Positions 1 through 64,000 of a stretch of DNA of 64,000 bases are shown piece by piece. The position numbers and the translations under genes were made by a program. The stretch covers positions 597,647 to 661,646 of the forward strand of contig JBBRLQ010000002.1 in the NCBI GenBank assembly GCA_038231275.1. Direction: 5' to 3'. This stretch comes from Polyangiales bacterium (GTDB lineage Bacteria; Myxococcota_A; Polyangia; Polyangiales; Polyangiaceae). Every line of letters starts with the position of its first letter. Position 1 is the first letter of the stretch. Under the pieces are notes generated by a model, which searched no databases, was not told where the DNA came from, and was given only the letters and a program-made list of their open reading frames with translations.

Positions 1-173
1 TCGGCGGAGGCATCGGCCGCGGCCATCGCGGCGCCCGCGTCGGAGGAGGCCGCGGCAGCGGACCCATCGTCGGCCGCATCGGCGCCGGCGTCCTTGGGCT
101 TGGGGCAGCCTACGAGCAGGGGGAGACACGTGAGGCCAGTGATGCCGGTGAGGAAGAGGACGCGGCTCTTCAT
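1..173 (-). CDS. Putative lipoprotein, N-terminal part (runs off the window edge)
   Basis: Translated by hand from ATG 173: MKSRVLFLTGITGLTCLPLLVGCPKPKDAGADAA..., with a signal peptide, LVGC lipobox and Ala/Asp-rich linker. Confidence 0.6.
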   Translation of the reverse strand, partial: MKSRVLFLTGITGLTCLPLLVGCPKPKDAGADAADDGSAAAASSDAGAAMAAADASA

Positions 174-219
174 GGAAGCCGCAGAATACACGGCCCGCAT
201 CCTGATATCGTCCGCGTTC

Positions 220-997
220 ATGAGCACGCTCGAATTCGTGGACGTCGCGACCGCGCGCAGCGCGCCGGGCGTGCGGATGGTCGTCTCCGGCCTCGTGCCG
301 AGCCCGTGGTCCGAGGCCGCCAAGGGTGTCTTCAAGATCGCCGGGGTCCCGGTGGTCGGCGTTCGCCGGATGCGCGACGGGGCCGAGATCGCCGCGTGGA
401 CCGGCGCCGATGCCGGTGGTGGTGTACGGCGCCGAGCCCGTACGCACGCATTGGGCGGCGATCACCACGCTCGCGGCGCGCCTCGCCGGACCCGACGTGG
501 TGCTCCCCACGGAGGTCGCGGCGCGCGCCGAGACGATGGGCATCCTCCACGAGCTCGCGGGCGAGGGCGGCCTCGGCTGGAACGCGCGCCTCGCGATGAT
601 CGACATCACCCTCACCACCGGCGGCGCGCGCGGCTTTCCCCTCCCGGTCGGCCAGCGTCTCGCGGAGCGCTACGGGTACACGCCGGAGGGTGCGCAGACC
701 AGCCGCGCCCGGGTCGAGCAGCAGCTAAAGTGGCTCCACGCACGTCTCCGCGCGCAGCACGCGCTCGGGCACGCCTACCTCGGCGGCGCGCGCATCTCCG
801 CGCTCGACGTCTATCTCGCGACGTTTCTCACTCCCCTCTCGGAGATCCGGGCCGAGGACTGTCCCGATCTCGTGCCGCTGCTGCGCCAAGCGTTCGGCTG
901 CGCGCACGAGGTGCTCGGCGCGCTCGTCCCCGCGGAGCTCGCGGCGCACCGCAAGATGATCTTCGAGCGTCACCTCACATGGCCGATCGCGCTCTGA
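220..997 (+). pseudogene. Glutathione S-transferase-like protein, frameshifted near 410 (pseudogene or sequencing error)
   Basis: MSTLEFVD...VPSPWSEAAKGVF...WTGAD lies in the 94 frame and continues as PVVVYGAEPVRTHW...YLGGARISALDVY in the 326 frame. The C-terminal motif is GST-like. Confidence 0.6.
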
Positions 998-1021
998 TCG
1001 CAGCAGAGCGACGCGCAATGC

Positions 1022-1450
1022 TCACTTTTTGGTGGTCTTCTTCGTGCTCTTCTTCGTGGCGCGCGCGGCGGAGTTGGCCGCCACCGCTGCGCGAACGAGC
1101 TGTTTGAAGGCAGTTGCGTTGATCTTCTCGCCCTCGCGGACATCGATCGCGCGCCGCGTGTTCCCTTCCAAGCTGGAGTTGAAGAGCTTCTTCGGATCGG
1201 CGAGGGAGGCGCCGCGCGCGAAGGTGAGCTTCACGACCTGCTTGTACGACTCCCCGGTGCAGACGATCCCGTCATGGGAAAAGACGGGAGTCCCCATCCA
1301 CTTCCACTCCTCCACGATCTCCGGCTCGGCGTCGTGAATGAGCGTACGGAGGTGAGCGAGCGTCTCTCCTCTCCAATCCCCGAGCTCTTCGATCCGCTCG
1401 GTGATCTTCGCGGAGGCGTCGTCGCCATTCGGATGCACTTTGGGAGTCAT
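1022..1450 (-). CDS. DUF1801 (YdhG-like) protein
   Basis: LGDWRGETL...IVEEWKWMGTPV...KLTFARGASLADPKKLFNSSLEGNTRRAID; AAGGAG RBS upstream of ATG 1450. Confidence 0.85.
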   Translation of the reverse strand: MTPKVHPNGDDASAKITERIEELGDWRGETLAHLRTLIHDAEPEIVEEWKWMGTPVFSHDGIVCTGESYKQVVKLTFARGASLADPKKLFNSSLEGNTRRAIDVREGEKINATAFKQLVRAAVAANSAARATKKSTKKTTKK

Positions 1451-45974: not shown

Positions 45975-46032
45975 GTTTAGTCATATGACTTAGTCGAATG
46001 ACTAAACTGACCGATGGTGTTCGCCTTGTCAA
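45975..46032 (-). promoter_or_regulatory. Tandem palindromic operator (probably TetR) and -35 element
   Basis: GTTTAGTCAT-N13-ATGACTAAAC at 45975-46007, made of overlapping AGTC-N4-GACT sites; TTGACA at 46032-46027. Confidence 0.75.
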
Positions 46033-46143
46033 GCGTTGTTGTCCTCGTACCGTCAGGGCGGCGAGGGGCGTGCTCTCGGACGTGTAACGCGAAGGAGCAC
46101 GCGCCCCTGCACGACAGTGGGGGCGGAGTATCCTCTGGATGCG

Positions 46144-47034: not shown

Positions 47035-47060
47035 CGGAAACGATTCGCTAACCTTCCCAT

Positions 47061-47336: not shown

Positions 47337-47419
47337 GGTACACGTCACCGAGCAGCTACGAGCTGCATGCGATCTCCTGGTCGGCCAGGAGCTCATCGAC
47401 CTCTGCTAACGTCTGCCGC

Positions 47420-47926
47420 GTGTACGTCGGCGTCCAGCACACCGTCAAAGAGACAGCGAGTGTCGAGCTCCCGTTCGCGTGCAATGCGTGCGGCTTTCAG
47501 TCGCCCGTACGCATCCGTACGGAAGGGTTCGGCGCCGGCGTTGCCCACTTCGGCGTCGGCAACCAGACGGCGCACGACGCCGCGCGGCGTCGGGCGGTCG
47601 TGAACGTACGGCGTTCGGCCAAGATTATGTGGGAGGCCTTGGCATGCCCTCGCTGCGGAGCACGCAGCAAGAACGGCGATCGCACGCGCCTCGTTTGGAT
47701 CGTCGTGCCGGTGGCGATGGCGAGCGCGTTCCTCACGAGCCTCATCGCGAGCGCCGTCGTCCTCCAGGTCTTCGCCGACACGATCGGCAGCGCCGGCATC
47801 TTCCTGGTCGCGGCCACGCTCGTGAGCCTGGTGTGCGTGATGCCTTCGGTGATGCTGGTCATCGCTCGCAGTCTTCCCATCGCGAAGCTCCGGAGGAACG
47901 CCGCGAAGCACGCGGAGTTTCTGTAA
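47420..47926 (+). CDS. Hypothetical membrane protein with a zinc-ribbon-like CxxC pair
   Basis: CNACG and CPRCG followed by two TM helices. Confidence 0.6.
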   Translation: MYVGVQHTVKETASVELPFACNACGFQSPVRIRTEGFGAGVAHFGVGNQTAHDAARRRAVVNVRRSAKIMWEALACPRCGARSKNGDRTRLVWIVVPVAMASAFLTSLIASAVVLQVFADTIGSAGIFLVAATLVSLVCVMPSVMLVIARSLPIAKLRRNAAKHAEFL

Positions 47927-47956
47927 GCTCGTCGCGTGCCCGCCGACCGCATCCGC

Positions 47957-49419: not shown

Positions 49420-49490
49420 CGCGTATCCGACTCACTCGGCTGCCGATGCCGCCCTCCGCGCGCGTCATGGCGTCGGTCCCGCCCGCCGCA

Positions 49491-49799
49491 TCAGCCATCC
49501 TTCGGCGCGTCGGCGGCTGCGTCGATCCCTGCGTCGGCCGCGTCGACCTCCCGTGCGGCATCGACGGGTATGCAGTCGCTCTGCGTGCAGCTCCAGCGGC
49601 CCTGGTAGCAAAAGAAATGGCTGCCCAGAGAGCAGCCGATGGGGCAGGGGTCACCGATCTGATCCTCCACGCACTCCGCGTCTGCCACCGAGGAGTCGGA
49701 GGGTCCGGCATCGGGCTTTACGTCGCTGCTGCATGCCGCGACGGCCGCAAAGGCGGGCACGAGAAGAAGGAGAGGAAGAAGAAGAGCACGCGACAGCAT
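49491..49799 (-). CDS. Small Cys-rich lipoprotein
   Basis: Lipobox VAAC; six further Cys; DAG-rich tail. Confidence 0.7.
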   Translation of the reverse strand: MLSRALLLPLLLLVPAFAAVAACSSDVKPDAGPSDSSVADAECVEDQIGDPCPIGCSLGSHFFCYQGRWSCTQSDCIPVDAAREVDAADAGIDAAADAPKDG

Positions 49800-49929
49800 C
49801 GTGCCCCCATCAACGCAGGAAACGTACCGCGTGAAGGGGGCACGAAGTGGCTGATTTCAGGAATCCTCGTGTGCCAACTGGCACGCGCGCAGGATCCGGG
49901 CGGCACACGCGTTGTGCTAGAAGACGCGT

Positions 49930-50249
49930 GTGGCGGAGTTGCCGGGGCACATCGCCCGTCTCGAGAGCTGGCTGCGCCGTAGCGCGGACGCCCCCGCGTG
50001 GGCCGCCGTGCTCCTCGTCGAGGCGCGCGACATGCGCTTCGGACCGCGCGACTCTCGGCGCTGGGCGTCTACGAGGGATTGCTCCTCGTGTGCGTCGAGC
50101 TCCCGCGCGACGCCACGGGAGTGCCGCAGGGCCGGACGAGCGTGAACCTCTCGGGCCCCCCGCTCGACGTCAGGAGCGGCGCCTGCGTCTGGGACGTGAA
50201 CGTCCGGATGGACGTGCTCGCGCGAGCGGACTTCGCGGGCGGCGCGTAG
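49930..50249 (+). pseudogene. Possible frameshifted or truncated hypothetical gene
   Basis: Protein-like text switches from the 49930 frame to the 49998 frame near 50055. Confidence 0.3.
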
Positions 50250-50325
50250 GATCGTCGCATGCGAACGCTCCTCAATCTGGTCGGCAGCTTGTAACGAACC
50301 GGACCAGGAGAGGCCAGGACGAGAG

Positions 50326-50520
50326 CTAGTGCTCGGCGACGACCAAGCAGACCGCGCGCCGCGCTTGCCTCACGGCCTCGATCCGATCCGCGCTGGGCAC
50401 CTGCGGAGCTCCCGCGTCCTGGGCCAAGAGGGCGGACGCGTACTCGCCCTTGATCGCCCAGTTGACCCCCTGGGGCAACGCGCCGGTCGCTTCGATGAAC
50501 GGGAGAACCGCAATCCCTCG
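50326..50520 (-). pseudogene. C-terminal remnant of a trypsin-like peptidase gene
   Basis: ATGALPQGVNWAIKGEY...VRQARRAVCLVVAE resembles the end of S1C proteases. Confidence 0.5.
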
Positions 50521-50577
50521 TCGTCCAAGGGCGGGCTGTTGTGCACCGTGCGGCGGCGGATCTATCGTCCCGACGCC

Positions 50578-52566
50578 ATGGTGCGTTCGTTCGCCCTGCT
50601 CGCCGTCTTGCTCCTCGTCGCCGCGCCCGGCTGCGCGTCGCCGTCGTCGGGCCGCATCGCGCTCTCGGCGTCGACCACGCGGGACCTCGCGGCCGGCGTC
50701 TTCGAAGTGGTCATCCCTCGCGTCGAGGACACGCCGGGGACGAAGTATGCAATCCCGCTTCCGTTCGAGCTCCTTCCGTTCGCGCAGCGCAACGAAATGC
50801 TTCGCGGCATCGGCACCGCGTTCGCGATTTCGCGCACTCGGTTCGTCTCGGCGGCGCACGTGATGCCCCTGCTCGGCGCGTCTGCCGAGCGCTACTTTTT
50901 GCGCGACTCCGGCGGCGCGACGTACGAAATCGGGCGAATCGTGAAGTATTCGAAGTACCGCGACCTCGTCGAGTTCGAGCTCGTGACCCCGATCCCGAAC
51001 GTCCTGCCGCTCGTCCCGAGGAACGACGTCGAGATCGGCGAGCTCGTGCTCACCGTCGGCAACGCGATCGGGGAGGGTATCGTCGCGCGCGCCGGGGCGC
51101 TCACGTCGCGCACGCCGGAGCCGGTGGACGGGGCGTGGAGCTTCCTTCGCTACACGTCGCCCGCGTCGCCGGGAAACAGCGGCGGCCCGCTGATAGACGG
51201 GGCGGGCCGCGTCGTCGGCGTAGTGGTCCAGAAGAGCCCCGCCGAAAACCTGAACCTCGCCGTTCCGATCGCCGAGCTCGCGGCAGTCAGCACGGCGACC
51301 AGTGACTACGGCGCCAAGGGGGTTCGCTTCGACGAAGACCACAAAGAGATGCTGGCGAACTGGGTCGCGTCGTCCCCCTTGCCCGACTCGCTCGCGTCGC
51401 TCCGCGTCGCCACGAAGCAATCAGGGTACGAATTTTTTCAGGCGAAGCTCGGCGAGTTCGACGCGAAATTCGGGAAGGAGACGTTTCCGAACGCCCCTCG
51501 CCTCGGCGCATACTTGAGGCAGCCACTGGTGCGGAGCGGCCTCGGGCACGTCACCGTCGATCCGACCGGCACGTGGGCGATCACCGAAACGAGCTACGCG
51601 TCGAAGGAGCTCGCGCCGGGGTACTTCGGCGAGTTCTTCGCCGACTCGCGAACGAGCGGACAGATCATGCTGACGAGGCCGCCCGGCGCGGCGCTCGCGC
51701 GGTTCTTCGCGTCGCCCAAGCTCCTGGCCGACGCGCTCCTCCGCAACTACGAGTGGACCATTTCGTTCGCCGGCCGACCGGTACGCGTGGAGACGCTGGG
51801 CGAGCCGGCGCGGACGGATCGGTGGGTGGACGAGTACGGGCGCCCGTGGTTCACGTTCGTCTGGCCGATACGTCGCGCCGACGAGGTCCTCGAGCTCGAT
51901 TGCCTGACCAACGCCGCAGGATGGGCGTGTTACTGGGAAAAGGCGCCGGCGCCGAACGAGGCCTTTCTGTCGATCTGGGCCAAGCGCCGCGCGCGACGGA
52001 CGACCATGGCGTATTTCGGGCACCTCGTCGATTGGGCGGAGTTTCTGGCGCTCCCCGAGACCCACCGCCCGCCGATCTTCGCGGGCGCGTCCGTGCGTCT
52101 CGACGGAGGGTTGACGTTCGCGTTCCGCCCGTTCGCCGGGAAAATCGATCTGCCCGCTTGGTCGAGCGCGAGCTTGCTCGACGTCTTCGTCGTCCCTGAG
52201 CCGCCGCCCGCGCTCACGCAACGCATTCTCGAAATCACGCTGCGACCTGAACCGGCGGTGAAGACCTTCACGTTGTCCTTGACCGCGCTCTCGAGCCCGC
52301 GCGACGGCATGCTCCCGGGGTACGCGGACGCGTGGCAAAAGCTGCGCACGTCGGCCGCGCCGTTCGACAACGTCCTCAAGACCGACGGCGGCGCCGGCAC
52401 GATCCAGCGCGCGATCGATCGGGCCCCGCCCGCGGGCGCCGACCGCGGGTACTTCACCACGTGCCACAGCCGAACGGACTACACTAAGGTGGACTTGCGA
52501 TCCGCCTGCACCAAGCTTCAGGAGGGCGTGAGGATCATCGGCGAGCCCGGGCCCCGCGGGCCCTAG
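50578..52566 (+). CDS. Trypsin-like (S1) serine protease, secreted lipoprotein
   Basis: GTAFAI, SAAHV, RDLV, ASPGNSGGP catalytic triad; signal ending APGC. Confidence 0.88.
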   Translation: MVRSFALLAVLLLVAAPGCASPSSGRIALSASTTRDLAAGVFEVVIPRVEDTPGTKYAIPLPFELLPFAQRNEMLRGIGTAFAISRTRFVSAAHVMPLLGASAERYFLRDSGGATYEIGRIVKYSKYRDLVEFELVTPIPNVLPLVPRNDVEIGELVLTVGNAIGEGIVARAGALTSRTPEPVDGAWSFLRYTSPASPGNSGGPLIDGAGRVVGVVVQKSPAENLNLAVPIAELAAVSTATSDYGAKGVRFDEDHKEMLANWVASSPLPDSLASLRVATKQSGYEFFQAKLGEFDAKFGKETFPNAPRLGAYLRQPLVRSGLGHVTVDPTGTWAITETSYASKELAPGYFGEFFADSRTSGQIMLTRPPGAALARFFASPKLLADALLRNYEWTISFAGRPVRVETLGEPARTDRWVDEYGRPWFTFVWPIRRADEVLELDCLTNAAGWACYWEKAPAPNEAFLSIWAKRRARRTTMAYFGHLVDWAEFLALPETHRPPIFAGASVRLDGGLTFAFRPFAGKIDLPAWSSASLLDVFVVPEPPPALTQRILEITLRPEPAVKTFTLSLTALSSPRDGMLPGYADAWQKLRTSAAPFDNVLKTDGGAGTIQRAIDRAPPAGADRGYFTTCHSRTDYTKVDLRSACTKLQEGVRIIGEPGPRGP

Positions 52567-52590
52567 AGCGCGGCCGCTACCGGCGCCCCC

Positions 52591-53150
52591 TCACGGGCAT
52601 GCGGCCAATGGGAACCACGCATCGTCCCAGCTCGGCCGCGCCGAGGTCGTGAAGTCGAAGGCGCCGAGCAGATCACCGTCGCTGCCCGCGTCCCGCGCCC
52701 CTGGCCCCAGCCGCGCGCTCCACGCGAAGACGTCTTCGACGAGCTTCGCGATCGCGCCGAAGCTGGTTGGAGTGGACACGACCGCGCCTCCGAGCGACAT
52801 CCCCCCGCGCGCCGCGCGAACGGAGAGATGACCATGAGCGGCACGCGCATGGCGCGCGAGTGGGTCGGGCAGTCGGCCGCTGCAGGTGGGACGTGATCGA
52901 ACGCAGAGCTCCAATCGCACGTGACCACGATGACGACCCCCTTGCCGGTCGCCGCGTCGTACCAGACGTTGCGACCGTCGCTCTCCTTCGCGTGCGCCAC
53001 GCCTTGCAGGATCTGCCGCGTCCAGTTCTCGCCGTAGCAGACGTCGACCCCTTCCTCGCTGCAGCTGACGCCGCCGGAGACCACGTTGCCGGTCGCGTCG
53101 CACGTCGCCTTCGGGTACTGGACGAACGTGACCGTCGCGAGGTCGCCCAC
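52591..53150 (-). pseudogene. Phosphoesterase/phospholipase C family remnant
   Basis: IVVTCDW..FDHVPP, RVPLMVISPFAR, then in another frame SFGAIAKLVEDVF...DLLGAFDF. Confidence 0.65.
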
Positions 53151-53159
53151 GCCCGACGG

Positions 53160-53425
53160 CGAACGGACGCAGGACCCCGGAGAAATCGCCGAGGTGCTTT
53201 CCCGGATAGGTGACCTGGATATTCGCCGCTCGCCACGACTGGTCGACCGGCTCGAGGAAGAGCGTCGCGCCAGGGACTTCGATCGTGGAGGCGAGCCGCT
53301 CGAAGAAGTCCTTTTCGTGCCATCGCTTTTCCAGTTGGTGACCGCGGGAACGCCGGTCACACGACCTGGCTCAACCTTCAAGTCGAGGTCCTCCGAGAAC
53401 CGCTCGATCAGCCCAAAACCTTCGA
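53160..53425 (-). pseudogene. AbiEii/AbiGii-like nucleotidyltransferase fragment
   Basis: GFGLIERFSEDLDL signature; frameshifted downstream; no start. Confidence 0.7.
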
Positions 53426-53434
53426 CGGCGAGTC

Positions 53435-53718
53435 CGACGCTTCTCCGGGACGCACGTCGTCCACCACGCGTCTCCGACCTCTTCAAGTAGGCGCCTCTCA
53501 ATGAAGTCCCGCGCCGAGTTCTCGAACGCAGCAATAGCCACGTAGACGACGGACATTTCACGCGCGCGCCCCAGCAACGGCATCATCCATCAGCGAAGGG
53601 GAAGACGCGCAGCAATCTTCTCGGCCCTCACAGCGGAGTTCGGACGCTCGTGGTTGTCGGCCGTCGCCTGCCGGGCGAGGAGGCCGCGATACGCGAAGGG
53701 GTCAACCTTCTGGCTCAT
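53435..53718 (-). pseudogene. Swt1-like HEPN protein, 5' fragment with internal stop
   Basis: MSQKVDPFAYRGLLA...stop...MSVVYVAIAAFENSARDFI...VGDAWW. Confidence 0.6.
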
Positions 53719-53805
53719 CGAGCGAATCTTGCGGACGACGTTTTCCTCACCGAGCGTTTGAGCACCCGCCGTGCGCGTTTGGTTCCCCTCCGAGTTTCCA
53801 TCACC

Positions 53806-55944
53806 ATGAATTTTCAGATCCTCAACGCTCCGGCGCTGGTCGCGTGTGCGGCTGCCGCCCTCGTAGCGGTTTCCTGTGCGGCGCCCTCGATTCGGCAGCC
53901 CCCGCGAAACGCTTCATCCGCCCCAGGTGCACGCCCCGCGCCTGCAGTGTCGCCGCACCCCCCGTCTTCGGGGCCCTCGGAAGAGGACGTTCTCAAGCAG
54001 CAAATTAGGCCTCACTGGCTGCCAGACGGCCATCGCTTCTGGTACCGCCACGAGCTTGCGGACGGCACGAACGCGTTCGTCGTCGTGGACCCCACAACCG
54101 GGGAGCGCAAGCCTGCGGTCAACCATGAGCACCTCGAGGAACAATCCAACGGCCTCGAAGCCGCAATGAAAGCGGCGGCGACCACCGAGAAGGCTCCTGG
54201 TTCCGAGGTCATCGTGTCGCCGGACGGTCACCGCGAGGCGTTCATCAAGGACCACAACGTCTGCGTGCGCACTCGGGCAGGTCGCGACACCGTTGTGCTG
54301 AGCCACGACGGGACCGAGGACGATGCGTATGCGCCCGAAGATCTCTCCTGGTCCCCCGATTCGACGAAGCTCGTCGCGATGCGTACCCGCAAAGGTGACG
54401 AGCGGAAGGTCTCCCTCATCGAATCGTCGCCGGCCGATCAGCTCCAGCCGAAGCTCAGCTCCTACGACTATCTGAAGGCGGGCGATCGGATCCCGATCGC
54501 CAAGCCGCAGCTCTTCGACGTCCGAACGCGGGCGCACATTCTGCTCGACGACCGGCTCTTCGCGCAGCCGTGGAGCTTGACGCAATGGCACTGGTCGCCT
54601 GACTCCAAGCGATTCAGCTTCCTCTACAACCAGCGCGGTCATCAGGTCGCACGCGTCGTCTCGCTGGACGTAGCCACCGGGGAGACGCGAGCGCTGATCG
54701 ACGAACAGAGCAAGACGTTCATCGATTACACAGGCAAGGCCTACTATCGAATCCTCGACGACACACGCGAGATCGTCTGGATGTCCGAGCGCGACGGGTG
54801 GAGCCACCTCTATCTTTACGACGCTGACACCGGGACCGTAAAAAACCAGATCACCCGCGGACAATGGGTCGTTCGCCGTGTGGAACGCGTCGACGCGAAG
54901 CAGCGGCAGATCTGGTTTCTCGCGGGCGGCGTGCGAAAGGGCCAGGATCCCTATTACCTTCATCTTTGCCGCGTCAATTTCGACGGTTCCGGTTTCACGG
55001 TGCTCACCGAGGGGGACGGCACGCACGCGGTCGACTACTCCCCGGACGAGCGCTTCTTCGTCGATACCTGGTCGCGTGTCGACCATCCGCCCGTTACCGA
55101 GCTACGGAGCGCGAGCGATGGTCGGCTCATCATCGAGCTCGAGCGGGTCGATGCCGGCCGGTTGATCGAGACCGGCTGGACCCCACCCGAGCGTTTCGTC
55201 ACGAAGGGGCGCGACGGAACGACAGATATCTACGGCATCATCATTCGCCCGAAGCGTTTCGATCCGACCAAGAAGTATCCCGTGATCGAGGACATCTATG
55301 CTTCGCCGAAGCGCGCGCACGTATCCAAATCTTTTGGAACCGACACCAGTCGCCGCGCGCTCGCCGAGAGGGGATTCATCGTCGTTCAGATCGATGGCAT
55401 GGGGACCTCCTATCGATCTAAGTCCTTCCAGGACGTGGCGTGGAAGAATCTTGCCGACGCCGGGTTTCAGGACCGCATCGCGTGGATAAAGGCGGCCGCG
55501 GGAAAGCACGCCGAAATGGATCTGACGCGTGTGGGCATCTACGGCGGCTCGGCCGGCGGACAAAGCGCGATGCGAGCGCTCCTCTCGCACAGCGATTTTT
55601 ACAAGGTCGCTGTGGCGGACTCGGGTTGCCACGACAACCGAATGGACAAGATTTGGTGGAACGAACAGTGGATGGGCTGGCCCGTCGATGACAGCTATGC
55701 CAGGAGCTCGAACGTGGTCGACGCGCACAAGCTCCAGGGCAAGCTGCTTCTCATCGTGGGCGAGCTCGATCACAACGTCGACCCGTCTTCGACGATGCAG
55801 GTCGTCAATGCCCTCATCGAGGCAGACAAGGACTTTGACCTGATCGTGGTGCCCGGCGGCGGCCACATGGTGGGGGATAGCCCCTACGGGGCCAGGCGCC
55901 GCGCGGACTTCTTCGTGCGGAGCTTACTGGGATCGACGCCCTAG
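53806..55944 (+). CDS. S9 family (DPP IV-like) peptidase, exported
   Basis: Beta-propeller with SERDGWSHLY; GIYGGSAGG, GELDHNV, GGGH triad. Confidence 0.93.
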   Translation: MNFQILNAPALVACAAAALVAVSCAAPSIRQPPRNASSAPGARPAPAVSPHPPSSGPSEEDVLKQQIRPHWLPDGHRFWYRHELADGTNAFVVVDPTTGERKPAVNHEHLEEQSNGLEAAMKAAATTEKAPGSEVIVSPDGHREAFIKDHNVCVRTRAGRDTVVLSHDGTEDDAYAPEDLSWSPDSTKLVAMRTRKGDERKVSLIESSPADQLQPKLSSYDYLKAGDRIPIAKPQLFDVRTRAHILLDDRLFAQPWSLTQWHWSPDSKRFSFLYNQRGHQVARVVSLDVATGETRALIDEQSKTFIDYTGKAYYRILDDTREIVWMSERDGWSHLYLYDADTGTVKNQITRGQWVVRRVERVDAKQRQIWFLAGGVRKGQDPYYLHLCRVNFDGSGFTVLTEGDGTHAVDYSPDERFFVDTWSRVDHPPVTELRSASDGRLIIELERVDAGRLIETGWTPPERFVTKGRDGTTDIYGIIIRPKRFDPTKKYPVIEDIYASPKRAHVSKSFGTDTSRRALAERGFIVVQIDGMGTSYRSKSFQDVAWKNLADAGFQDRIAWIKAAAGKHAEMDLTRVGIYGGSAGGQSAMRALLSHSDFYKVAVADSGCHDNRMDKIWWNEQWMGWPVDDSYARSSNVVDAHKLQGKLLLIVGELDHNVDPSSTMQVVNALIEADKDFDLIVVPGGGHMVGDSPYGARRRADFFVRSLLGSTP

Positions 55945-56062
55945 CAGGGTGGTGCGGGCGAGCGCGGCGAGAGGCTTGGCGGCGGGCATGGGGCGACGAT
56001 ACCAAGGCGGGTTGGCGGGGGGTCTGCGTTTCCGGGCGAGGTCAACGACGGGCGGGTGCGAT

Positions 56063-56839
56063 TCAGCGGCAGTACTCCGGATCCGTGTTGTTCGCGTGGC
56101 AGCACGTCGCGCCGAGGGCGCAGCGGCCCGCGTCGGAGAACGGGCAGTAGGGGCCGACGCCGCCGTCGGTCGGGTGGAGCGTGGGCGGCGGACCGCAGTT
56201 GGATCCGGCGTCGGAGCCTCCGTCACCTCCGCCATCCCCTCCGCCGCCGCCACCCGCCGTCGTACAGAGGCCGAACGTGTGTCCCTTCGACGAGAACGCG
56301 ACGCACCCGGTGCCGGGTACGCCGGCGCACTGCGCGTCGGTGGTGCAGAGCGCGATCTCGCCGGTGCCGCACGCCGCGCGGCACGCGCTCTCGGTCACCT
56401 TGGTGCCGTAGAGCCTGCCGCACACCGGGTCGCTCTGGACGCCGCCCTTTAGGCAGCACACCGGCGCCGCGCCTGAGCACATCGTCGCGTCGTCGCACTC
56501 GAACGCGTTGCCCGCCTCGGTGGCGAAGCCGCAGACGCCGGGCCGCGCCGAGCCGTCGGCGTTCGCGCCGGTGTCGTCGCCGGCGCCTGTGTCGGCCGCG
56601 CTGCTTCCGTCGGCGGGCGGCTGCGTCGTCGTCTGATCGGCGCCGCCCGAGTCGACGCCAGGCCCCGCGCCGCTCGAGCCGTCGCCGCCGCCGCACCCCT
56701 GCGCGCCGCCGCCGAGCACGGCCATCCCGAGGCCGCCGCAAAGAGCGAGCGCGCGTGCTACGGAGAGCGGCGGCCGCCCCTGGCTCCCGCGTCGGTCGTC
56801 GCTGCGCTTCGTGAGGTTCTTTGCGTGATCTCGTCCCAT
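56063..56839 (-). CDS. Cys-rich secreted lipoprotein, possibly 3'-truncated
   Basis: Hydrophobic stretch ending AQGC; Gly/Asp linker; many Cys; GPYCPFS motif. Confidence 0.65.
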   Translation of the reverse strand: MGRDHAKNLTKRSDDRRGSQGRPPLSVARALALCGGLGMAVLGGGAQGCGGGDGSSGAGPGVDSGGADQTTTQPPADGSSAADTGAGDDTGANADGSARPGVCGFATEAGNAFECDDATMCSGAAPVCCLKGGVQSDPVCGRLYGTKVTESACRAACGTGEIALCTTDAQCAGVPGTGCVAFSSKGHTFGLCTTAGGGGGGDGGGDGGSDAGSNCGPPPTLHPTDGGVGPYCPFSDAGRCALGATCCHANNTDPEYCR

Positions 56840-57184
56840 GACTTCGCTTGGCGAGAGGGGCGGCGCCTCATTTCGAAATCGACCTGCCCCTTCTCGACGC
56901 GCCGAGATCGCTGGGGTTACTTCCGCCGACTTCACGCGCGCGCTCCTCACCGTTCGTTCACTGCGAAGTGCACGCAATAGTTCCGCGCGTCGTGCCGTCA
57001 CGCAGAAGTTTTGGCAGCTCCTGCGCCGCGTAACGGTCGCCAAGGTGCCGGCCGAGGCGGGCGGGAGTGTGCTCATCTGATGGGGCCACTTCAGGCCTCA
57101 TCGATGGTGAACGAGTTCCGCGATGTCCTCCGGCTGAGCGCCGAGAGCCTCATGGTAGCATCGAGCAATGCGTACGGGCTCGTC

Positions 57185-57712
57185 TTGAAAAGACCCCGCA
57201 TCATGTTCGTGAACGCGGCGCTCGGGCTGTTGGCGGTCACGCTCACCGCGTCCGGCTGCGGCAACAAGAACGCTACGCCCGCCGGAACAAAAGTCCTCGA
57301 CTGGAGCATCGCGAACAGCGACCGCGCCGCGATCAAGACCGCGACGGTCGACGCACGCAAGACGAGCGATCGCGTCGCGACCTTCACGCTCGCCAACGAG
57401 GACGTGAAGCTGAAGCTCCATATTGAGAGCGGCACCGCGAAGTACGAAGAAGGCGGCAAGCCGATGCAGGTCTCGTCCGTCACGGCCGTCACTGCGTCGG
57501 TAGAGGACGGCAAGGACTACACGTTCACGGCGGGCACATGCCGCGGACCGGATTACGCGACCATCACGCCGGGCGCAGCTCCGGGAGATGCAGTCCTCGA
57601 CTGCCTGATCCACGCCGACAAGCCGAGGTATCAGATGCTCGTGACCTTCCAAATGAAAGGCGACGGCAGTCTCCTGCCGCAGAACGCGGGCACCACCCTG
57701 AAGGTGAAGTGA
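57185..57712 (+). CDS. Hypothetical lipoprotein
   Basis: KRPRIMFVNAALGLLAVTLTASGC lipobox; start is TTG 57185 or ATG 57203. Confidence 0.7.
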   Translation: MKRPRIMFVNAALGLLAVTLTASGCGNKNATPAGTKVLDWSIANSDRAAIKTATVDARKTSDRVATFTLANEDVKLKLHIESGTAKYEEGGKPMQVSSVTAVTASVEDGKDYTFTAGTCRGPDYATITPGAAPGDAVLDCLIHADKPRYQMLVTFQMKGDGSLLPQNAGTTLKVK

Positions 57713-57714
57713 GC

Positions 57715-57830
57715 GGTAGACGCAACGAGCGGCGCCCATGCCGGCCTCCACGCGAAAGCGGACCGTCTCGTACCCGTACTGCTGCTCCCGGGCGAAGAAG
57801 AGGAAGGGCCGCTTGCACATCCGGCAGCCA
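57715..57830 (-). pseudogene. Fragment of a zinc-ribbon (zf-trcl-like) protein
   Basis: CRMCKRPFLFFAREQQYGYETVRF. Confidence 0.45.
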
Positions 57831-57954
57831 CCTGAAACGACAAAGCCTTCGTCCAGAGGTTACGAAATCCTCCTTCCGTGCCTTTCCGCGAGCAAGCTCG
57901 CCGTCACATCGGGATCTGCGATCTGCACCGACTGCGGCCGAGAATCTTCTGGAG

Positions 57955-58000
57955 CGTGAAGAGGCGAACGTGTGCCGTAGGTCGTGAAGGCGAAAGCGAC
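57955..58000 (-). pseudogene. Tyrosine recombinase box II fragment
   Basis: FRLHDLRHTFAS; no flanking integrase sequence. Confidence 0.65.
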
Positions 58001-58100
58001 ATCGGAAACCTTCGCCAAGCGGAGGTCGCTGCGCGAGCTCCTGCGGGATAACGTCGACGCGTTCGCACGCGCGACGCCTCGACGCTACTCTGCTGCCGAC

Positions 58101-58214
58101 ATGTTTGCGCTCTACGCGACTCCGTTGTCCGCGAACGGGCGGAAGGTCCTTGCCGTGAGCCGCCACCTCGAGCTCGAGGCCCGGCTTCCAGCGGTACTAG
58201 GGGCCACGACGTGA
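58101..58214 (+). pseudogene. Glutathione S-transferase N-terminal fragment
   Basis: MFALYATPLSANGRKVLAVSRHLEL, after which similarity stops. Confidence 0.55.
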
Positions 58215-59128
58215 ACGCGGTGCTTCGGCTACAAATTGGACTGCTCGCGATCGGCGACGGCGACTGCGCGCTCGTCCAACCATGCGCGACGTTCGTCCCG
58301 CTGTCGCCGCTGTCGGATCAGAAGCGGGCGTGGCACGTGGTGCGGCGGGACGACGTGAACAACGAGGTGCGCCGCGCGCTCGATTTGTTCGACCCGGTCG
58401 AGCGCGTGCCGGAGGCGCAACCGCTCGATCGCCTCATGGTCGAGACGTGCCCGCTCGTGATCGTGTCCGACGAGGTCCGCGCCGAGCTCGTGTCGCGCGA
58501 CGTTCGCGTGTGGACCGTGGGGTACCATCGAACACCGGACCTCTTGTTCGTGGCCGGGGCGGGCGGCGACGCTCCGATGCGCTGGGCGGCGACCCCGTAC
58601 GACATGTCTCGCGCGGGTCACACGCAAATTGCTCTCGTCGATCGAGTGCTTCGAGCGGCGACGGGTGGCGCGATCGACGAGCCATCGCTCATGCTCGCGG
58701 CGGAGCTCCAACGTCTCGGCTGGGACGACTGGTCGCGACCCGTGGCCGAGCGCGCGCACGCGCGCCAAGTCATCGAGATGGTTCGTGACGATCCCGAGGA
58801 GGCGCGCGCGTGCTTTTACGACTCGTTGCAGAGCTCGTTCGCGCGCCACTTCGGCGCTCGAAGCGTCCCGCCCTACGACGAGGCGACGGTTCGCACGGTG
58901 CGCGCGATGCGGACGGCGTCTGGGCCCGAGGAAGTGCGCATCGAAGACGCGGGTGTGTTCCGCCGCGAATCGTCGCCCGAAGTCGTGGTCGCCATTCCGA
59001 ATTCGCCGGACGATTGGGTGGCGAAATGGTTCACCGCGTTCGATGTCGTGGCGATAGACCCCTTCGGCGCGACGAGCCGGGTGCTGCGAATTCCGACTGC
59101 CTATCGTTACGTCCGAAGAGGCAGGTGA
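58211..59128 (+). CDS. Hypothetical protein
   Basis: 305-aa ORF, globular composition, no motif recognised. Confidence 0.6.
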   Translation: MNAVLRLQIGLLAIGDGDCALVQPCATFVPLSPLSDQKRAWHVVRRDDVNNEVRRALDLFDPVERVPEAQPLDRLMVETCPLVIVSDEVRAELVSRDVRVWTVGYHRTPDLLFVAGAGGDAPMRWAATPYDMSRAGHTQIALVDRVLRAATGGAIDEPSLMLAAELQRLGWDDWSRPVAERAHARQVIEMVRDDPEEARACFYDSLQSSFARHFGARSVPPYDEATVRTVRAMRTASGPEEVRIEDAGVFRRESSPEVVVAIPNSPDDWVAKWFTAFDVVAIDPFGATSRVLRIPTAYRYVRRGR

Positions 59129-59169
59129 CGTGCAGGAAGCAACATTCGTTGCAGTCCGCGCTGCTCACG

Positions 59170-60273
59170 TTACCGCGAGACCGCGAGACCGGCGGAGCGG
59201 AGCAACGCCATCCAGGTGGCGCTCGGTTCGCCGTGCGTCGCCTCGAAGTGGAGTGCGATGAGCTGAAACGACAGTCCGGCGCGACGAGCCCAGATGAAGA
59301 GATCGCGAGGGCGTCGGATACGGGGGTTTGGCCGGTCGTCGAAGATGGCGCGGAGCATATCCTCCTTCGTCGAGATGCCCTTTTTCTCCGGCTCGTCGTC
59401 GTCGTCGTCCTCCGGCGCCTCGCTCAGCATGTCCGTCATGAAGTCGGTCGCGAGATCGTCATCGATGAGGCCCGCTGAGGCTGCCATACAGATCGTCCCG
59501 GCCGTGAAGAGCTCGAAGACGCCCTCCTGAACGGCGTTTTCTTGGTCCACCACAATCAGGCTAAGATCCGAGCTGAAGGAGATCGGCGGCAAGCGCGTGC
59601 GTCGCTGCTCTTGTGTGAAGACCGACCGAAGGGTGGCGCGCGCGTTGGGATGTTGACCGCGCGATGCATCGACGGAACGAAGCGAGAGCGGAGCGACGGG
59701 GATGGCGCCGAGAAACATATCTGCGGGCGTGAGGCCGCACGCGTCGAGCTTGGCCAGCACACGACGCCCCGCGTCGACGAGCACGGAGCGCTCATGGTCG
59801 GACAATCGAGAGAACGAATCCAAGGCTTCGCCGTCGGCGAGACGATCGAGGCGCGCCTTGCATGTGGTCAACGACGAGAGTCGCGCGAGCGCCCGCATGG
59901 CGGATGGCCCCGTCGACACCTCGAGCTCGGTCCCATGTCGCTCGACGAGCGCGCCGACCTCGCCGCTGCGGACGAGCGTGCCCGCCGGCAGGGTGGAAGT
60001 TGGCGACCTCTCGATCACGGCGATGCCGCCAAACATCATCCTTTCGAGCGTTGCGAGCGGAAGCCCACAGACCGCCGAGAAATCAGAGGCGAGCCACGGA
60101 TGCAAGACCGGCGACACCTCGAAATAGCCCAAACGGGCCTCACCCGTCGGACCGAGCCCGTCCACCGAATCGAGGTCGTTCGCGTCGGTGATGCAGGTGC
60201 TCGCCGACTCGATCACATCTGCCTTCTTCGCGGGAACGATCCGCCACGAGGCCGAAAGTTGAAAATAGCTCAT
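59170..60273 (-). CDS. Stand-alone divergent homologue of the RNA polymerase beta-prime clamp region
   Basis: Colinear blocks [86 protein letters not shown] resemble RpoC residues of about 100-310. No zinc-finger cysteines and no NADFDGD. Confidence 0.65.
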   Translation of the reverse strand: [367 protein letters not shown]

Positions 60274-60489
60274 GAACAATCAGCTTACGAGCGCGCCGGT
60301 CCGGTCTTCCCCGTCGGCTTGGCTGCAATTCAAGTGGTCAGACCAGCGACACGAATGCGTCGACGTGCACCTAAACAGAGTTGCCCGTTCGGCGGGTTGG
60401 CGGCAAGACAGCGGACCACGGGACGTCCCATCCACGCAGGGTCTTGCATTCAGCTGCGCCCTCTTCGAGGTAGTGTTCTTCGGGTCGCC

Positions 60490-60531
60490 GGAAAGGAACT
60501 CCGCCCCGTCCAGGGAAGGAAGGGCGGAGTT
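60490..60531 (-). terminator. Hairpin downstream of the tRNA 3' fragment
   Basis: AACTCCGCCC (60497-60506) pairs with GGGCGGAGTT (60522-60531), followed by CCTTT on the minus strand. Confidence 0.6.
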
Positions 60532-60541
60532 TCCATCTCTT

Positions 60542-60563
60542 AGTTGCGCGGGTAGGATTTGAA
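60542..60563 (-). mobile_element. 3' fragment of an initiator-type tRNA-Met; probable att site of an integrated element
   Basis: Minus strand reads TTCAAAT-CCTAC-CCGCGCA-A-CT: T-loop, T-stem 3' arm and acceptor arm ending GCAA. No 5' half of the tRNA. Confidence 0.7.
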
Positions 60564-60614
60564 GCCAGAAAAGCTGAGCGATTACAGCAGCATTCGCACA
60601 CTTCTGAGCGCGAC

Positions 60615-60836
60615 TTGGTCCAAACCCCCTCCGAAACCCCGCGATACCCCGTCGACCAAAACGAGTTTGGACCAACCGTTGGACCAATCGAAGCGGCGCT
60701 CGCGAATGCGCTCGAGGCGGCAGCGGCAGCGGGCAGGTTCGACGTCGTGGCGCAGCTCGCGAAGGAGCTCGAAGCGCGGCGACTGGCCAGCGCGGGGAAT
60801 GTCGTCGTGCTCACACAGCACCGCGACCGACGCTGA
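60615..60836 (+). other. Detached C-terminal tail of an integrase (attP-in-int type) or small ORF
   Basis: PIEAALANALEAAAAAGRFDVVAQLAKELEARRLASAGNVVVL, directly beside the tRNA fragment. Confidence 0.5.
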
Positions 60837-60963
60837 CTGGCCGCGTCGACCGAGGACGGTCGCCCCAGTGGACGCCGCTCTAGGCGGCCGCGTAGGCTCA
60901 GAGGATGTCGGGGGGGACGCAGCGTGCGTGGCCATCGAGCCGTCGTTCGCCTACTCTAGACAA

Positions 60964-62160
60964 GTGACCGAGTCGGGGGACGAGAGCCGGGACCTGTACA
61001 AGGTGCTCGGGGTCGACGCAACAGCATCGGCGGACCAGATCGGTGCCTCGTTCAAGCGGCTCGCCGCCCGCCTTCACCCTGACCGCAACCAAGGCGACCC
61101 GACCGCGGCGGTGAAATTCAAGCGCGTGAACGCCGCATACCAGGTGCTCAGAGACCCGCAGAAGCGAAGTCAGTATGACGACCTGACTCGCCCTGTCGAA
61201 GACTTCGACGAAGAAGCGCCCGGCTTCGATTCGAAGGCTCTTTCTGCAGCAGTCTCGCGAGGCCTGCTGCTCGCCTTGCAGGCGGCGATGGCGCGTGACT
61301 TGGACGTCACCGACGACGATTTGGCAGAGATCGCGATGGCATGGCTACACAAGCACATGGGGGGCGGGGCACCGGGGTCCCCTTCTCAGGCCATACTCGC
61401 GTCCCTCACTCCCGCCTTTGTGGCCAGGATGATGGCAAAGATGGCCGCAGGCATTCGCCTGGTGGCGAGTCGCGCAGTCGCTGCCGCGCTTGACGAGGAG
61501 GCGGGGGCCGGGGACCCTCCCGTCGCCGCGTTCGTGGAGGTGTGTTTTCGAAACGACCTACCCAAGCTCGCGGACCACATCGACCCGGCATTTACGTTTC
61601 ATCTTGGGCGCAGCTATGCCGGCATGTGTCGGCAATCGGGCCGGCATCCCGAGGCGTGGTTTGCGTGGTTCGCGCGGCGCGTGCAGGATGGTTACTGGGC
61701 ATACCGACGAAACAAACGGCATGGCCCACAGAGCGAGCCGCGCCCCTCGCCTCGTCCCGGACCGAACGCGAATTGCGAAGCGGCGCAACGGCCGCCCGCG
61801 AGCGAGCCGCCGAAACGGAAAAAATCACCCCCGCAAACGGCGCAACGGCCGCCCGCGAGCGAGCCGCTGAAATGGAAGAATCCGCCTCACCAGGAGGCGC
61901 CGCCGACCGAGGCATGGGCTGGATCCAACATCGCAGTTCTGGCCGGGCTCGGATTCGTTCTGGTGGGCGCCCTTGCCGCGGGCGGTGCCTTCTCGTCTCA
62001 GCCGGCGACCCCGGTACCGCAAACGGAAGCACCCGCAGCAGCGTCCGCCCCACTCTACGTCCCGCCACCCCCGCCGAAGATCTACACGGTCCAAGCAGGA
62101 GACGGTTGGTCGATCATCGCCGCGCGCACTGGGGTCAAGATGCACGACCTGTTGCTGTGA
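60964..62160 (+). pseudogene. J-domain + TM + LysM protein truncated by IS insertion
   Basis: DLYKVLGV...LHPDRN...AYQVLRDPQKRSQYD; TM IAVLAGLGFVLVGALAA; YTVQAGDGWSIIAARTGVKMHDLL stops mid-LysM at the IS end. Confidence 0.8.
61781..61890 (+). repeat. 57-bp tandem coding repeat (2 copies)
   Basis: CGGCGCAACGGCCGCCCGCGAGCGAGCCGC at 61781 and 61838 (AQRPPASEP). Confidence 0.85.
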
Positions 62161-63692
62161 TCTTCACCCGCTTCCGTCTGGCCATTCATCGCAATTTTCC
62201 CTGTGATTTAAGAACCTCCAGAGCGACGGCGACCGGAGTGATGAAGTCGAGGCCGCGCCGAAGCGTGACGGCGCCTGGTAGCCCGCTCGACTTGTGACCC
62301 GCGTATCCGCCCAGGTCGGCGAGCCATCGCACGGCCTGGGCGATCGTCGGCATCTCGTCGGGGATGTGCTCGGTGCGCTTCGCGTAGCGGCGCTTCATGA
62401 GGATGAGCGCGTCGATCTCGTGCTGCGTGAAGGTTCCCAGCGCGGGTTCGTCGGGGGTCGTCCGTGCGAGCACTCTCAGGCGTTCGATCCGAGCGGCGGT
62501 CACGACCGCAAGTATTGCCCACTTGATGACGCTCGCGGAGGATCGGAGTTGGGTCTCCTCGACGCGAAGCGCGCCGGACTTCCAAACGCGATGAAGCTCC
62601 TCGATTCTCCATCGCTTCGTGTACCCGTCGATGACGGCGAGGACGTCCTTCATCGTCGTCACGGAGTGGTTCGTCAGGAGGCGCCAGTGCAGCGGCTTCT
62701 CGCCGCGTGGCGTCGTGCCCACCTCCAAGATGTCGACAACGTTCACGCCGAGCGCGAGGCTTTGCTCGGAATGGGCTTCGACCATGTCGAGCGTCGTGGT
62801 CGCCGTACGGATCCGAAGCTGCGCGCTACGCCCCGCGCGATGCAGTCGCGCCGGGATGTAGAGGCTCACGGTGTCTCGATATTTTCCTCTCCGCGCGACG
62901 TTCCGGAGGCGACGCCGTCGTCCCGCTCCGTCTGGTGCTACGAAGCGATGACCGTACGTCGAGCGCACGGTAAACCACTGGCCGGTGAGATGGATCGCCG
63001 CCAACGTCCAGTACCGATCTCCCTCCCGGTCGACCTGAAACCACGCGCGGCAACCGGCCAGCACAAGCGCTCGCGTGGCCTGGTCGATCGCCCGGACCCA
63101 ATGGACGGTCTCCTTCTCTTCGAGCGGCCGCTTCGTGCAGTCGCTGCGCTTCCTGCGTGCTCGGCGCGTCCACCACTGCTAATTCAGGACCCCAATCGGC
63201 GTGCCGTCCGCGGAGACGGCATAGGCATGGATCACCTTCAATCCCCGCGCGCCATTCAACGTCGAACCCACGCCGCCGAAGTCCTTGCGGCGCTCCCAGT
63301 CGGCCAGCTTCAGACTCGTGCCATCGACGACGACGTGAACCCACGGCGCCTGCTCGCATCGCCGCACGGTCGCGGTCTCCGCGGCCGCGAGGATCGCTTC
63401 ACGGGGAACGCGAGAGTTGCCGAGAAGATCGTAGGCCCCCTGCCGCTCGGCACTGCTTCGAAAGACATCCAGCACCTTACCCCCGGGACGCTCGGCGAGC
63501 GCTGCTGCCATGTGAACCAACCGCGTAGTGCGTCGCGGATCGCGCAGCTCCGCGTGCCCGAACTCCTCGTACGCCCAGTCTCGCGCATCCCCATCGCCGG
63601 TTTGCATGCCTCGGAAACGGCGCCCTTCCCCTTGAAATTCCCGAGGAACACCGACTTCCGATCAATGGCCAGACGAGACCGGGGGAGGATCA
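62158..63692 (-). mobile_element. IS4 family (IS50/Tn5-like) insertion sequence
   Basis: Imperfect 34-bp inverted repeats at 62158-62191 and 63659-63692 (6 mismatches) enclose the transposase. No target duplication found. Confidence 0.85.
62186..63607 (-). pseudogene. IS4 family transposase with in-frame TAG at 63179-63181
   Basis: WAYEEFGHAELRDPRRTTRL, VVVDGT, VDREGD, WRLLT, YTKRWRIEELHRVWKSG, WLADLGGY; both ORF pieces are in the same frame. Confidence 0.9.
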
Positions 63693-63705
63693 ATGCGCGC
63701 GTCGC

Positions 63706-63779
63706 CGGATGGCGATCGGACAAGACGGCGCATCGCGATCACACAAGATGGCGGATGGCGATCGGACAAGACGGCGCAT
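63706..63779. repeat. 28-bp exact direct repeat, 46-bp period
   Basis: CGGATGGCGATCGGACAAGACGGCGCAT at 63706-63733 and 63752-63779. Confidence 0.9.
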
Positions 63780-64000
63780 TCAGATCATCCCCTGAGCTAA
63801 CGCTCTCCCGGGCGGGGGGAAGATCATCCTGCTTTCGACTGTCGCTCACGACGTCAAGCTGGGCGACGTCCCGGTCTCTGCTGAAATTTGAAGGTGGCGG
63901 TTCCACCGGCCCCGATCGAAAGATCGAGGTGCTTAACCCGAAAGGAACCGCCAATGAAAGACACTGCCAGGAAGAAGGACCGGCGCCAAGCGGCGTCGCC

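Follow-up and report, generated by a model that had tools for sequence, protein, structure and literature searches.

Every sigma factor is anchored to RNA polymerase (RNAP) mainly at two places, the clamp helices and the flap tip; factors of the NusG family are likewise held by the clamp helices. The clamp has been handled as an isolated domain in an engineered archaeal protein (3qqc), which we take to be a man-made fusion of archaeal subunit pieces. According to PMC6755090, sigma region 2 docks on the clamp helices of the beta' subunit and region 4 on the flap-tip helix of beta, the latter via L901, I905 and F906; as stated in PMC8321222, the substitutions R275Q, E295K and A302D impair holoenzyme formation. 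Here we describe a bacterial gene whose product resembles a clamp standing alone. It occupies positions 59170..60273 of the minus strand in a 64,000-nucleotide stretch of a Polyangiales bacterium genome (contig JBBRLQ010000002.1, positions 597,647 to 661,646; this whole stretch is called the window below), and its 367-residue product is called P0001. We are highly confident that this is a real gene encoding a clamp-only paralogue of beta'. The original prediction, made by eye on the sequence, had proposed an intact, stand-alone, non-catalytic derivative of the RpoC clamp, and this proposal stood up, with significant profile and structure matches and open reading frames.

Homology to beta' and predicted fold

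When P0001 alone was compared by phmmer with 177,635 distinct Protein Data Bank (PDB) sequences, all 49 matches obtained at E<=10 were RNAP largest-subunit chains (best E 7.9e-5; E. coli beta' 2.2e-3). They cover one common stretch, residues 46-259 of the query (142-259 for the weakest match) against beta' 100-310 in E. coli numbering, and the pairing of these two segments with the E. coli K-12 subunit required three short gaps. The same comparison reproduced all six of the colinear RpoC-like blocks that had originally been drawn by eye along the 367-aa open reading frame (ORF). A profile of the four family members presented below (profile A2: P0001, P0003, P0004 and P0005) gave 77 PDB matches at E<=10, the best 60 of which were all beta' or cyanobacterial gamma (best E 3.6e-13, E. 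coli 3.3e-12). By hhalign against the beta' N-termini of 14 relatives, the probability was 97.6% and the E value 3.9e-12, a match robust over residues 45-259, and the hidden Markov model (HMM) match to the full-length beta' of five relatives ended right at the DNG with which the clamp helices close. Identity of P0001 to the relatives' beta' amounts to 23-25% in the alignment used for modelling (A3, see below).

Standard annotation misses this family altogether. Pfam gave no family at E<=1 on P0001, PF04997 (RNA_pol_Rpb1_1) included; against a gathering score of 39.7 bits for PF04997, P0003 reached 11.4 bits and P0005 12.6 bits. NCBIfam assigned to P0001 only rpoC_TIGR (TIGR02386), with 18 bits and an E value of 4.7e-4 against a cut-off of 963.5. 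Judged from these sequence comparisons, P0001 is a real but very diverged homologue of beta' about 100-310, that is, of the clamp core, the lid and the clamp helices.

The fold was predicted with AlphaFold2. The four family rows alone gave an unusable model with a predicted local distance difference test (pLDDT) of 37.7, and alignment A3, with 23 rows (4 family members, 5 paralogues and 14 beta' segments of about residues 85-345), gave a pLDDT of 82.3 and a predicted template modelling score (pTM) of 0.82, low confidence being confined to residues 1-8 and 287-321. The best 49 Foldseek matches listed from the PDB were all beta' (top 8.7e-11, TMq 0.50), as the original prediction would have it. 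VIA-align superimposed the model on E. coli beta' with a Z of 17.7 and a root-mean-square deviation (rmsd) of 4.0 over 258 residues, model 9..349 corresponding to beta' 19..1353, and on Thermus beta' with model 9..340 corresponding to 7..1448. On cyanobacterial gamma, which is without the C-terminal half of beta', the superposition stopped at model 282, equivalent to residue 349. The match to E. coli beta' thus runs into the C-terminal helices of the model, which are confidently predicted (325-345 and 352-360), model 349 being matched with beta' 1353. Their placement is not simply copied from the alignment, since beta' rows are absent from those columns (except for one misaligned paralogue row).

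A Foldseek-independent search of 48,161 representative chains led to the same fold. Ranks 1-12 (Z 15.1 to 6.8) went without exception to the largest subunits of multisubunit RNAPs, and the first unrelated chain came at Z 6.1. Rank 5 was the isolated archaeal clamp domain crystallised with Spt4/5 (3qqc_A, Z 9.9, rmsd 4.2, 187 aligned, model 8..349); split beta'-like chains of phage AR9 (Z 10.4) and of the plastid polymerase (Z 13.5) were also matched, and a viral fold library gave only weak matches, to viral RNAP large subunits (best E 1.2e-5). In the model, P0001 has the appearance of everything that beta' contributes to the clamp, freed of the enzyme core. Its parts, all on the minus strand, are as follows.

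59170..60273, minus strand: whole coding sequence of P0001, 367 codons plus stop, with the ATG at 60271-60273, a GC3 coding signature and an N-terminus common to P0003
60169..60249, minus strand: residues 9-35, N-terminal strand/helix segment comparable to beta' about 19-45 (SHGEVKKPE region)
60139..60168, minus strand: residues 36-45, short junction replacing the beta' zipper and zinc-binding domain
59680..60138, minus strand: residues 46-198, clamp core homologous to beta' about 100-249, pLDDT 86-96
59644..59679, minus strand: residues 199-210, loop at the beta' lid position, length kept but not sequence
59497..59643, minus strand: residues 211-259, clamp helices (coiled coil) comparable to beta' 265-310, predicted helices 211-226 and 236-266
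59416..59496, minus strand: residues 260-286, family-specific helical block common to all four members, structurally comparable to beta' about 311-349
59311..59415, minus strand: residues 287-321, acidic low-confidence linker at the place of the beta' catalytic core, pLDDT 37-40
59392-59412, minus strand: acidic tract E288-E294, about 30 residues past the clamp helices
59332..59376, minus strand: residues 300-314, possible short flap-tip-like helix with weak support, resembling PEEKLLRAIFGEK of beta
59173..59310, minus strand: residues 322-367, two confident C-terminal helices, positioned like the clamp segment at the C-terminus of beta' (E. coli about 1330-1354), pLDDT 77-92

At the N-terminus, MAFFT paired residues 18-35 with E. 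coli beta' 28-45 and VIA-align started at model 9, equivalent to beta' 19; HMM support for residues 9-35 on their own was not found. The absence of the zinc-binding domain, already noted by eye, was confirmed in the alignments, where none of the four E. coli zinc ligands C70, C72, C85 and C88 has a counterpart in P0001. About 55 residues, the zipper and the zinc-binding domain, are missing there, and homology restarts at the motif R-x-G-H/Y. In the lid-position loop the pLDDT falls to about 56 (residues 201-210). The second clamp helix is the block best conserved with beta' (phmmer against E. coli) and among the best conserved within the family too, and the tip between the helices differs from that of beta' by an insertion of 3 aa and from that of P0003 by an indel of 7 aa. 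The isoelectric point (pI) of residues 46-259, 6.1, falls within the range of the same beta' stretch in E. coli and five relatives (5.0-7.1), and the proposed loss of further basic residues is therefore not a general feature.

The catalytic NADFDGD loop, the double-psi barrel and the remaining roughly 1000 residues of beta' are absent from the 367-aa protein; similarity to beta' stops at 310, in agreement with the missing catalytic region of the original prediction. The acidic tract that it had placed at the position of the rudder actually belongs to the linker 287-321. Along with the zipper and zinc-binding domain, P0001 has lost the rudder and everything that forms the active centre. The C-terminal part gave no sequence match to beta' (E>0.4), and its helices were matched with beta' region H neither by hhalign (E 0.46) nor by HMMER, so that this correspondence is structural only. 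Two other identities were tried and rejected: a 15-residue block as a relic of the NADFDGD catalytic loop (hhalign E 0.44), and the C-terminal part as a degenerate C-terminal domain of alpha (alpha-CTD), PF03118 matching, genome-wide at E<=10, rpoA and three weak others and not P0001. A role as decoy for switch-region antibiotics, also proposed originally, is unlikely because most of the switch-region pocket is missing: the structural alignment ends near beta' 349 and then jumps to about 1330, and sequence similarity ends at 310.

Family members and genomic setting

Apart from P0001, a word-indexed search of 5.8 billion proteins turned up a single relative, P0003, a protein of 327 aa that covers 99% of the query with an identity of 51% by BLASTP and of 59% when only aligned columns are counted. 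An exhaustive HMMER scan of 1.84 billion representatives gave three hits at E<=0.001, namely P0001 itself, P0004, a 136-aa fragment with 56% identity to residues 228-357, and P0005 (286 aa, 24-32% identity, E 2.1e-4). P0005 is taken as a full-length distant member, since it shares with P0001 the second clamp helix, the motifs HPW and PxAP..LR and the C-terminal ...LLxSAGLAI. Searches with profile A2 and from P0005 brought no further members; pattern scans gave 130 matches in genome contigs and 212 in metagenome contigs, none of them confirmed, and the ESM Atlas contained no usable match to whole P0001 or to residues 259-367. No orthologue was found in 60 related genomes, both same-genus genomes included, where the only consistent matches were genuine rpoC genes (frames up to 1444 aa, 25-28% identity over 46-259). 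Likewise, a profile search of 400 genomes of the class found only rpoC (E 1e-16 to 1e-11, against 1.8e-142 for the P0001 gene). In the organism's own genome (94% complete, 164 contigs), PF04997 (at E<=1) and PF00623 found nothing, and the relatives' beta and beta' profiles matched nothing beyond the final 297 residues of beta', which lie at the edge of a contig (C50:32745-33671, minus strand). The resident rpoB-rpoC operon is thus mostly absent from the assembly, the clamp region of its rpoC included.

P0001 and P0003 differ by 10 indels, all of them in frame, and the frames of P0001, P0003 and P0005 are open over their full length and colinear despite their divergence (41% for P0003). Identity to P0003 is spread evenly over the protein (permutation p 0.38). 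Two outcomes had been named at the outset as fatal to the clamp proposal, the lack of any clamp match and homologues that are only decaying rpoC; what we found instead were clamp matches and two homologues, P0003 and P0005, with full-length open frames. That P0001 is not a decaying copy of the resident rpoC is thus supported. In a tree of clamp paralogues (22 rows, P0004 being left out as a fragment), the P0001 family formed its own very long branch (SH-aLRT 94); branches were saturated and the tree did not give the origin of the family.

On the minus strand the ORF extends over 59170..60279 if read from a TTG (369 aa); with the ATG at 60273 as start it encodes 367 aa. This ATG is the likely start codon, since P0003, the closest homologue, opens with the same M-x-Y-F-x-L-S. 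The GC contents at codon positions 1, 2 and 3 (0.65/0.50/0.79) follow the usual coding pattern for a genome of GC 0.692, and by simple arithmetic 367 stop-free codons would arise in random 65% GC sequence with a chance of about 1e-4. Scans of 58900-60800 found no promoter-like site and one terminator-like site, located within the clamp ORF and at chance level; no clear Shine-Dalgarno sequence was found upstream of the ORF. Two DNA sequencing runs containing the organism, both from one study, and no RNA runs are listed.

The clamp gene stands alone. It is convergent with a 305-aa ORF of no assigned family (58211-59128) and divergent from a gene for a membrane J-domain protein (60559-62160, plus strand; DnaJ domain E 7e-23). 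The 533-aa frame of the latter has its J domain at residues 145-207 and also contains a hydrophobic segment, a stretch rich in proline and, at its end, a weak LysM start, and its product looks like a membrane-anchored J-protein. Further on lies a split Tn5/IS4-like transposase (62186-63064 and 63179-63661, both on the minus strand), with a DNA-binding N-terminus in one part and the DDE and dimerisation C-terminus in the other; contig C2 ends just past it, the window end being the contig end. On the other side, two frames without family match are found between a gene for a DPP-IV-like peptidase (53650-55944) and the neighbour of the clamp gene: a Cys- and Gly-rich 337-aa frame (56063-57076, minus strand) and a 233-aa frame with a lipoprotein-like N-terminus (57011-57712, plus strand). 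PADLOC and PHROGs gave no family on P0001 and its neighbours, J-domain matches excepted, no other RNAP-like ORF was found in the last 14 kb of the window, and the contigs of the homologues, which span 1.8-3.3 kb, contained no conserved partner gene nearby.

Window positions 1-20000 aligned with a same-genus genome in long blocks at 83-91% identity. Within 30001-50000 only two short islands were conserved (44876-45928 and 46121-47338), and within 50000-64000 only fragments of <150 nt were matched in either of two same-genus genomes. Positions 30001-64000 form a large variable region. GC falls from about 0.69 to 0.62-0.66 across the last 11 kb. Given the lost synteny, the GC drop and the adjoining transposase, the clamp gene is in accessory, probably mobile, DNA. 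Elsewhere, the genome has four RpoD-like sigma genes (C51:2879-4807, C2:34215-34955, C25:357-1046 and C10:115275-115961), with 100%, 62%, 46% and 48% identity, respectively, to the principal gene in regions 2-4; the window's contig carries one of the four, about 560 kb away.

What the clamp protein may do

The function that we tentatively put forward is molecular mimicry of core RNAP. P0001 reproduces the beta' part of the clamp as a soluble protein without catalytic region, in which the acidic flexible linker joins the core to the clamp-closing helices; its free clamp-helix surface would be offered to sigma region 2. The flap-tip-like helix tethered in the linker could provide a second site, for sigma region 4. 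In this way P0001 might hold or sequester sigma away from the core polymerase, as an anti-sigma factor or sigma holder does, and its gene would probably have been acquired with mobile DNA. That P0001 is a sigma-docking mimic of this kind, with putative binding, is the likeliest of the explanations weighed here, although we consider it more probably wrong than right. The fuller proposal, in which it would be the first natural core-polymerase mimic, capture sigma through two contacts and represent the minimal member of a wider set of non-catalytic pseudo-polymerases, is more doubtful still.

There are two putative contact surfaces. In the linker, a helix predicted at 303-311, within residues 300-314, resembles the flap-tip helix of E. 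coli beta (893-910, TQLTPEEKLLRAIFGEKA). When P0001, P0003 and P0004 were each aligned locally with a relative's whole beta, the flap-tip segment came out best every time, with shuffle p values of 0.007 for P0003 and 0.009 for P0004. HMMER gave E values of 0.004-0.01 against five beta sequences, and the profile of the C-terminal part gave three PDB matches, two of which were RNAP beta (E 0.77 and 1.3), one of them an isolated flap-domain fragment. MAFFT pairs residues 287-313 with beta' 311-337, a pairing without statistical support and at odds with the flap-tip assignment. The resemblance of the linker helix to the flap-tip helix is weak. In the clamp helices, the equivalents of R278 and R281 (R224 and R227) are conserved in 90% or more of the 23 A3 rows, and the equivalent of A302 is G251 in P0001 and A in the other family members.

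Several observations weigh against sigma docking. The equivalent of E295 is Q244 in P0001, and the family has Q, Q, Q and H there. The partner of R275 depends on the alignment: the original prediction had put a Q at this position, which holds in two alignments (Q221) and fails in two others (R224 in one, E222 in the other), and the position varies inside the family, being Q in P0001, R in P0003 and L in P0005. To judge from these alignments, P0001 has not clearly retained the residues known to contact sigma in E. coli. With identity to P0003 even along the length, no surface stands out as specially constrained. As for the flap-tip match, the shuffle p is 0.43 for P0001 itself, hhalign gave E 0.0019 with a probability of only 14%, and a 38-aa flap-tip profile ranked the P0001 ORF 40th among 90,404 six-frame ORFs of the genome (E 98); the motif is lacking in P0005, and the flap-clamp fusion paralogues described below have it at a place that is not colinear with that in P0001. 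Annotation of the neighbours revealed no sigma or anti-sigma gene near the clamp gene. Finally, the likeness of the model to beta' at 46-259 is partly built in, since its alignment contains beta' rows.

The free clamp might instead bind another clamp ligand, either a NusG-family factor or a foreign inhibitor from a phage or competitor, P0001 then being a decoy or sensor. The presence of 3qqc_A at rank 5 of the fold search indicates that a clamp by itself is able to fold and to bind an NGN domain, and the non-syntenic accessory region beside an insertion sequence (IS) element would suit a decoy, as defence and counter-defence genes often lie in such places. However, NGN domains bind at the tip of the clamp helices, and this tip, with its insertion and indel, is the least conserved part of P0001; PADLOC and PHROGs matched nothing other than the J domain, and the conserved partner gene sought nearby was not found. 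We regard this alternative as unlikely.

P0001 could also compete with beta' for beta or for the alpha2-beta intermediate, and so interfere with assembly or chaperone it, with a dominant-negative effect or growth arrest. In RNAP both beta' halves of the clamp enclose the C-terminal segment of beta, and the model keeps both halves; moreover, P0001 contains no beta-derived piece, unlike the fusions P0006 and L113, which have beta C-terminal sequence in the chain. At 23-25% identity to beta', on the other hand, retention of the beta interface is uncertain, and such a protein would be toxic unless tightly controlled, yet no regulator or antidote gene is evident among the neighbours. This makes competition for beta rather improbable.

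Equally, P0001 might be an evolutionary relic, the open fragment, functional at one time or never, of a duplicated or transferred rpoC in mobile DNA, with no present role. The tiny family (3 of 1.84 billion, itself included), the lack of an orthologue in the 60 relatives and the 400 genomes of the class, the accessory region with its IS flank and the even divergence from P0003 all fit such an origin. Against it stand the three divergent frames, full-length and colinear, with 10 of 10 indels in frame, the GC3 coding signature over a run of codons that chance would keep free of stops at only about 1e-4, and the C-terminal helices, which are confidently predicted to pack as a clamp; we find a relic improbable. 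A subunit fragment of a split divergent RNAP with partners encoded elsewhere, as in jumbo phages, plastids and cyanobacteria, would account for the fold matches to phage AR9 and the plastid polymerase and for the weak viral subunit matches (E 1.2e-5), but is very improbable with the catalytic motif and double-psi barrel lacking, similarity ending at the beta' 310 equivalent, no RNAP-like ORF in the window's last 14 kb, no PHROGs match, and only the true rpoC 3' end found genome-wide by beta and beta' profiles. Whatever probability sigma docking and these alternatives leave goes to something not foreseen.

Polymerase-derived paralogues and comparison with known systems

Related genomes of the class and order, which are large and of high GC, were found to hold further non-catalytic RNAP-derived ORFs of three types. 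The first comprises stand-alone beta' N-terminal pieces of 252-365 aa, one of which (L039) is also without the zinc cysteines; the second, proteins of about 690 aa with a clamp-like N-terminus and a C-terminal half of no assigned family; and the third, frames of 800-990 aa combining a beta flap piece, flap-tip helix included, the beta C-terminus, beta' 1 to about 490 and an alpha-CTD, in which the DFDGD motif is lost. Several end in acidic/aromatic tails (DDFDFD, DDEDEYDF, DDDDFEDFD, HDFDDLDDID). The loci are as follows.

Plus strand, paralogue loci: L039:7737-8600, L038:1201-3267, L042:6363-9116, L116:978-3341, L120:1466-2221
Minus strand, paralogue loci: L040:7389-8396, L041:6496-8568, L113:1054-4026, L114:1336-3741
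Minus strand, remaining paralogue loci: L115:1764-4433, L118:1757-2764, L119:1344-2438

Examples of their sizes are 288 aa for L039, 336 aa for both L040 and L118, 918 aa for P0006 and a 991-aa frame for L113. As read from the match table of an order-level survey, about 9 of 121 genomes have such extra ORFs, and in three further genomes the two matches look like a single rpoC cut in two by contig ends. The Pfam cut-off is passed by most of these paralogues, which are far closer to beta' than P0001 is: with Rpb1_1, the stand-alone piece L039 scored 99.7 bits, the likewise stand-alone L040 133.7 bits and P0006 45.9 bits, with L041 at 22 bits below the cut-off of 39.7. Annotation pipelines would call the flap-clamp-alpha-CTD fusions rpoB or rpoC fragments or pseudogenes. 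The alpha-CTD docks activators, and because the fusions keep the sigma- and activator-docking parts they lend indirect support to a docking-platform role of clamp paralogues generally. Separately, genome G163 carries a second rpoC fragment (L035, G163:C153:43730-46500) with a long insertion between regions A and B, presumably of the kind known from actinobacterial beta'; from its sequence, it could be assembly contamination or a transferred second rpoC.

In the full-text literature, the coverage of which leaves out subscription journals, no report turned up of clamp paralogues that stand alone or of sigma decoys derived from the polymerase. If sigma docking is true, the polymerase itself would have given rise to an anti-sigma factor or sigma holder, and P0001 would represent a new regulatory mode, titration by a mimic of the enzyme instead of by a dedicated anti-sigma fold; the flap-clamp-alpha-CTD fusions suggest a whole class of polymerase-derived regulators. 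P0001 would also be a small, expressible tool for the study of clamp ligands.

Among known systems, anti-sigma factors (Rsd, FlgM, the RseA/ZAS family and T4 AsiA) resemble P0001 in its proposed function, the occupation of the core-binding surfaces of sigma regions 2 and 4; neither Pfam nor the fold search revealed any relation of sequence or fold, and we know of no anti-sigma factor derived from a polymerase subunit. In comparison with split RNAP subunits (cyanobacterial gamma, plastid RpoC1 and the pieces of jumbo phages), P0001 is without the active-centre part and without RNAP-like neighbours. The other RNAP-derived paralogues are, like P0001, clamp pieces without the catalytic motif, but none has its C-terminal region. 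To the N-terminal clamp of RpoC, P0001 is related by homology over beta' about 100-310 and by the predicted fold, clamp-closing C-terminal helices included; it differs in its length (367 aa against about 1400 aa), in a gene that is not next to rpoB, in the added family-specific block 260-286 and acidic linker, and in scoring below every curated family threshold. The engineered archaeal clamp 3qqc is an isolated, self-folding clamp as P0001 appears to be, and differs in that the NGN-binding tip is not conserved in P0001. In appearance P0001 is its natural bacterial counterpart, as if evolution had repeated the isolated clamp domain that structural biologists built by hand.

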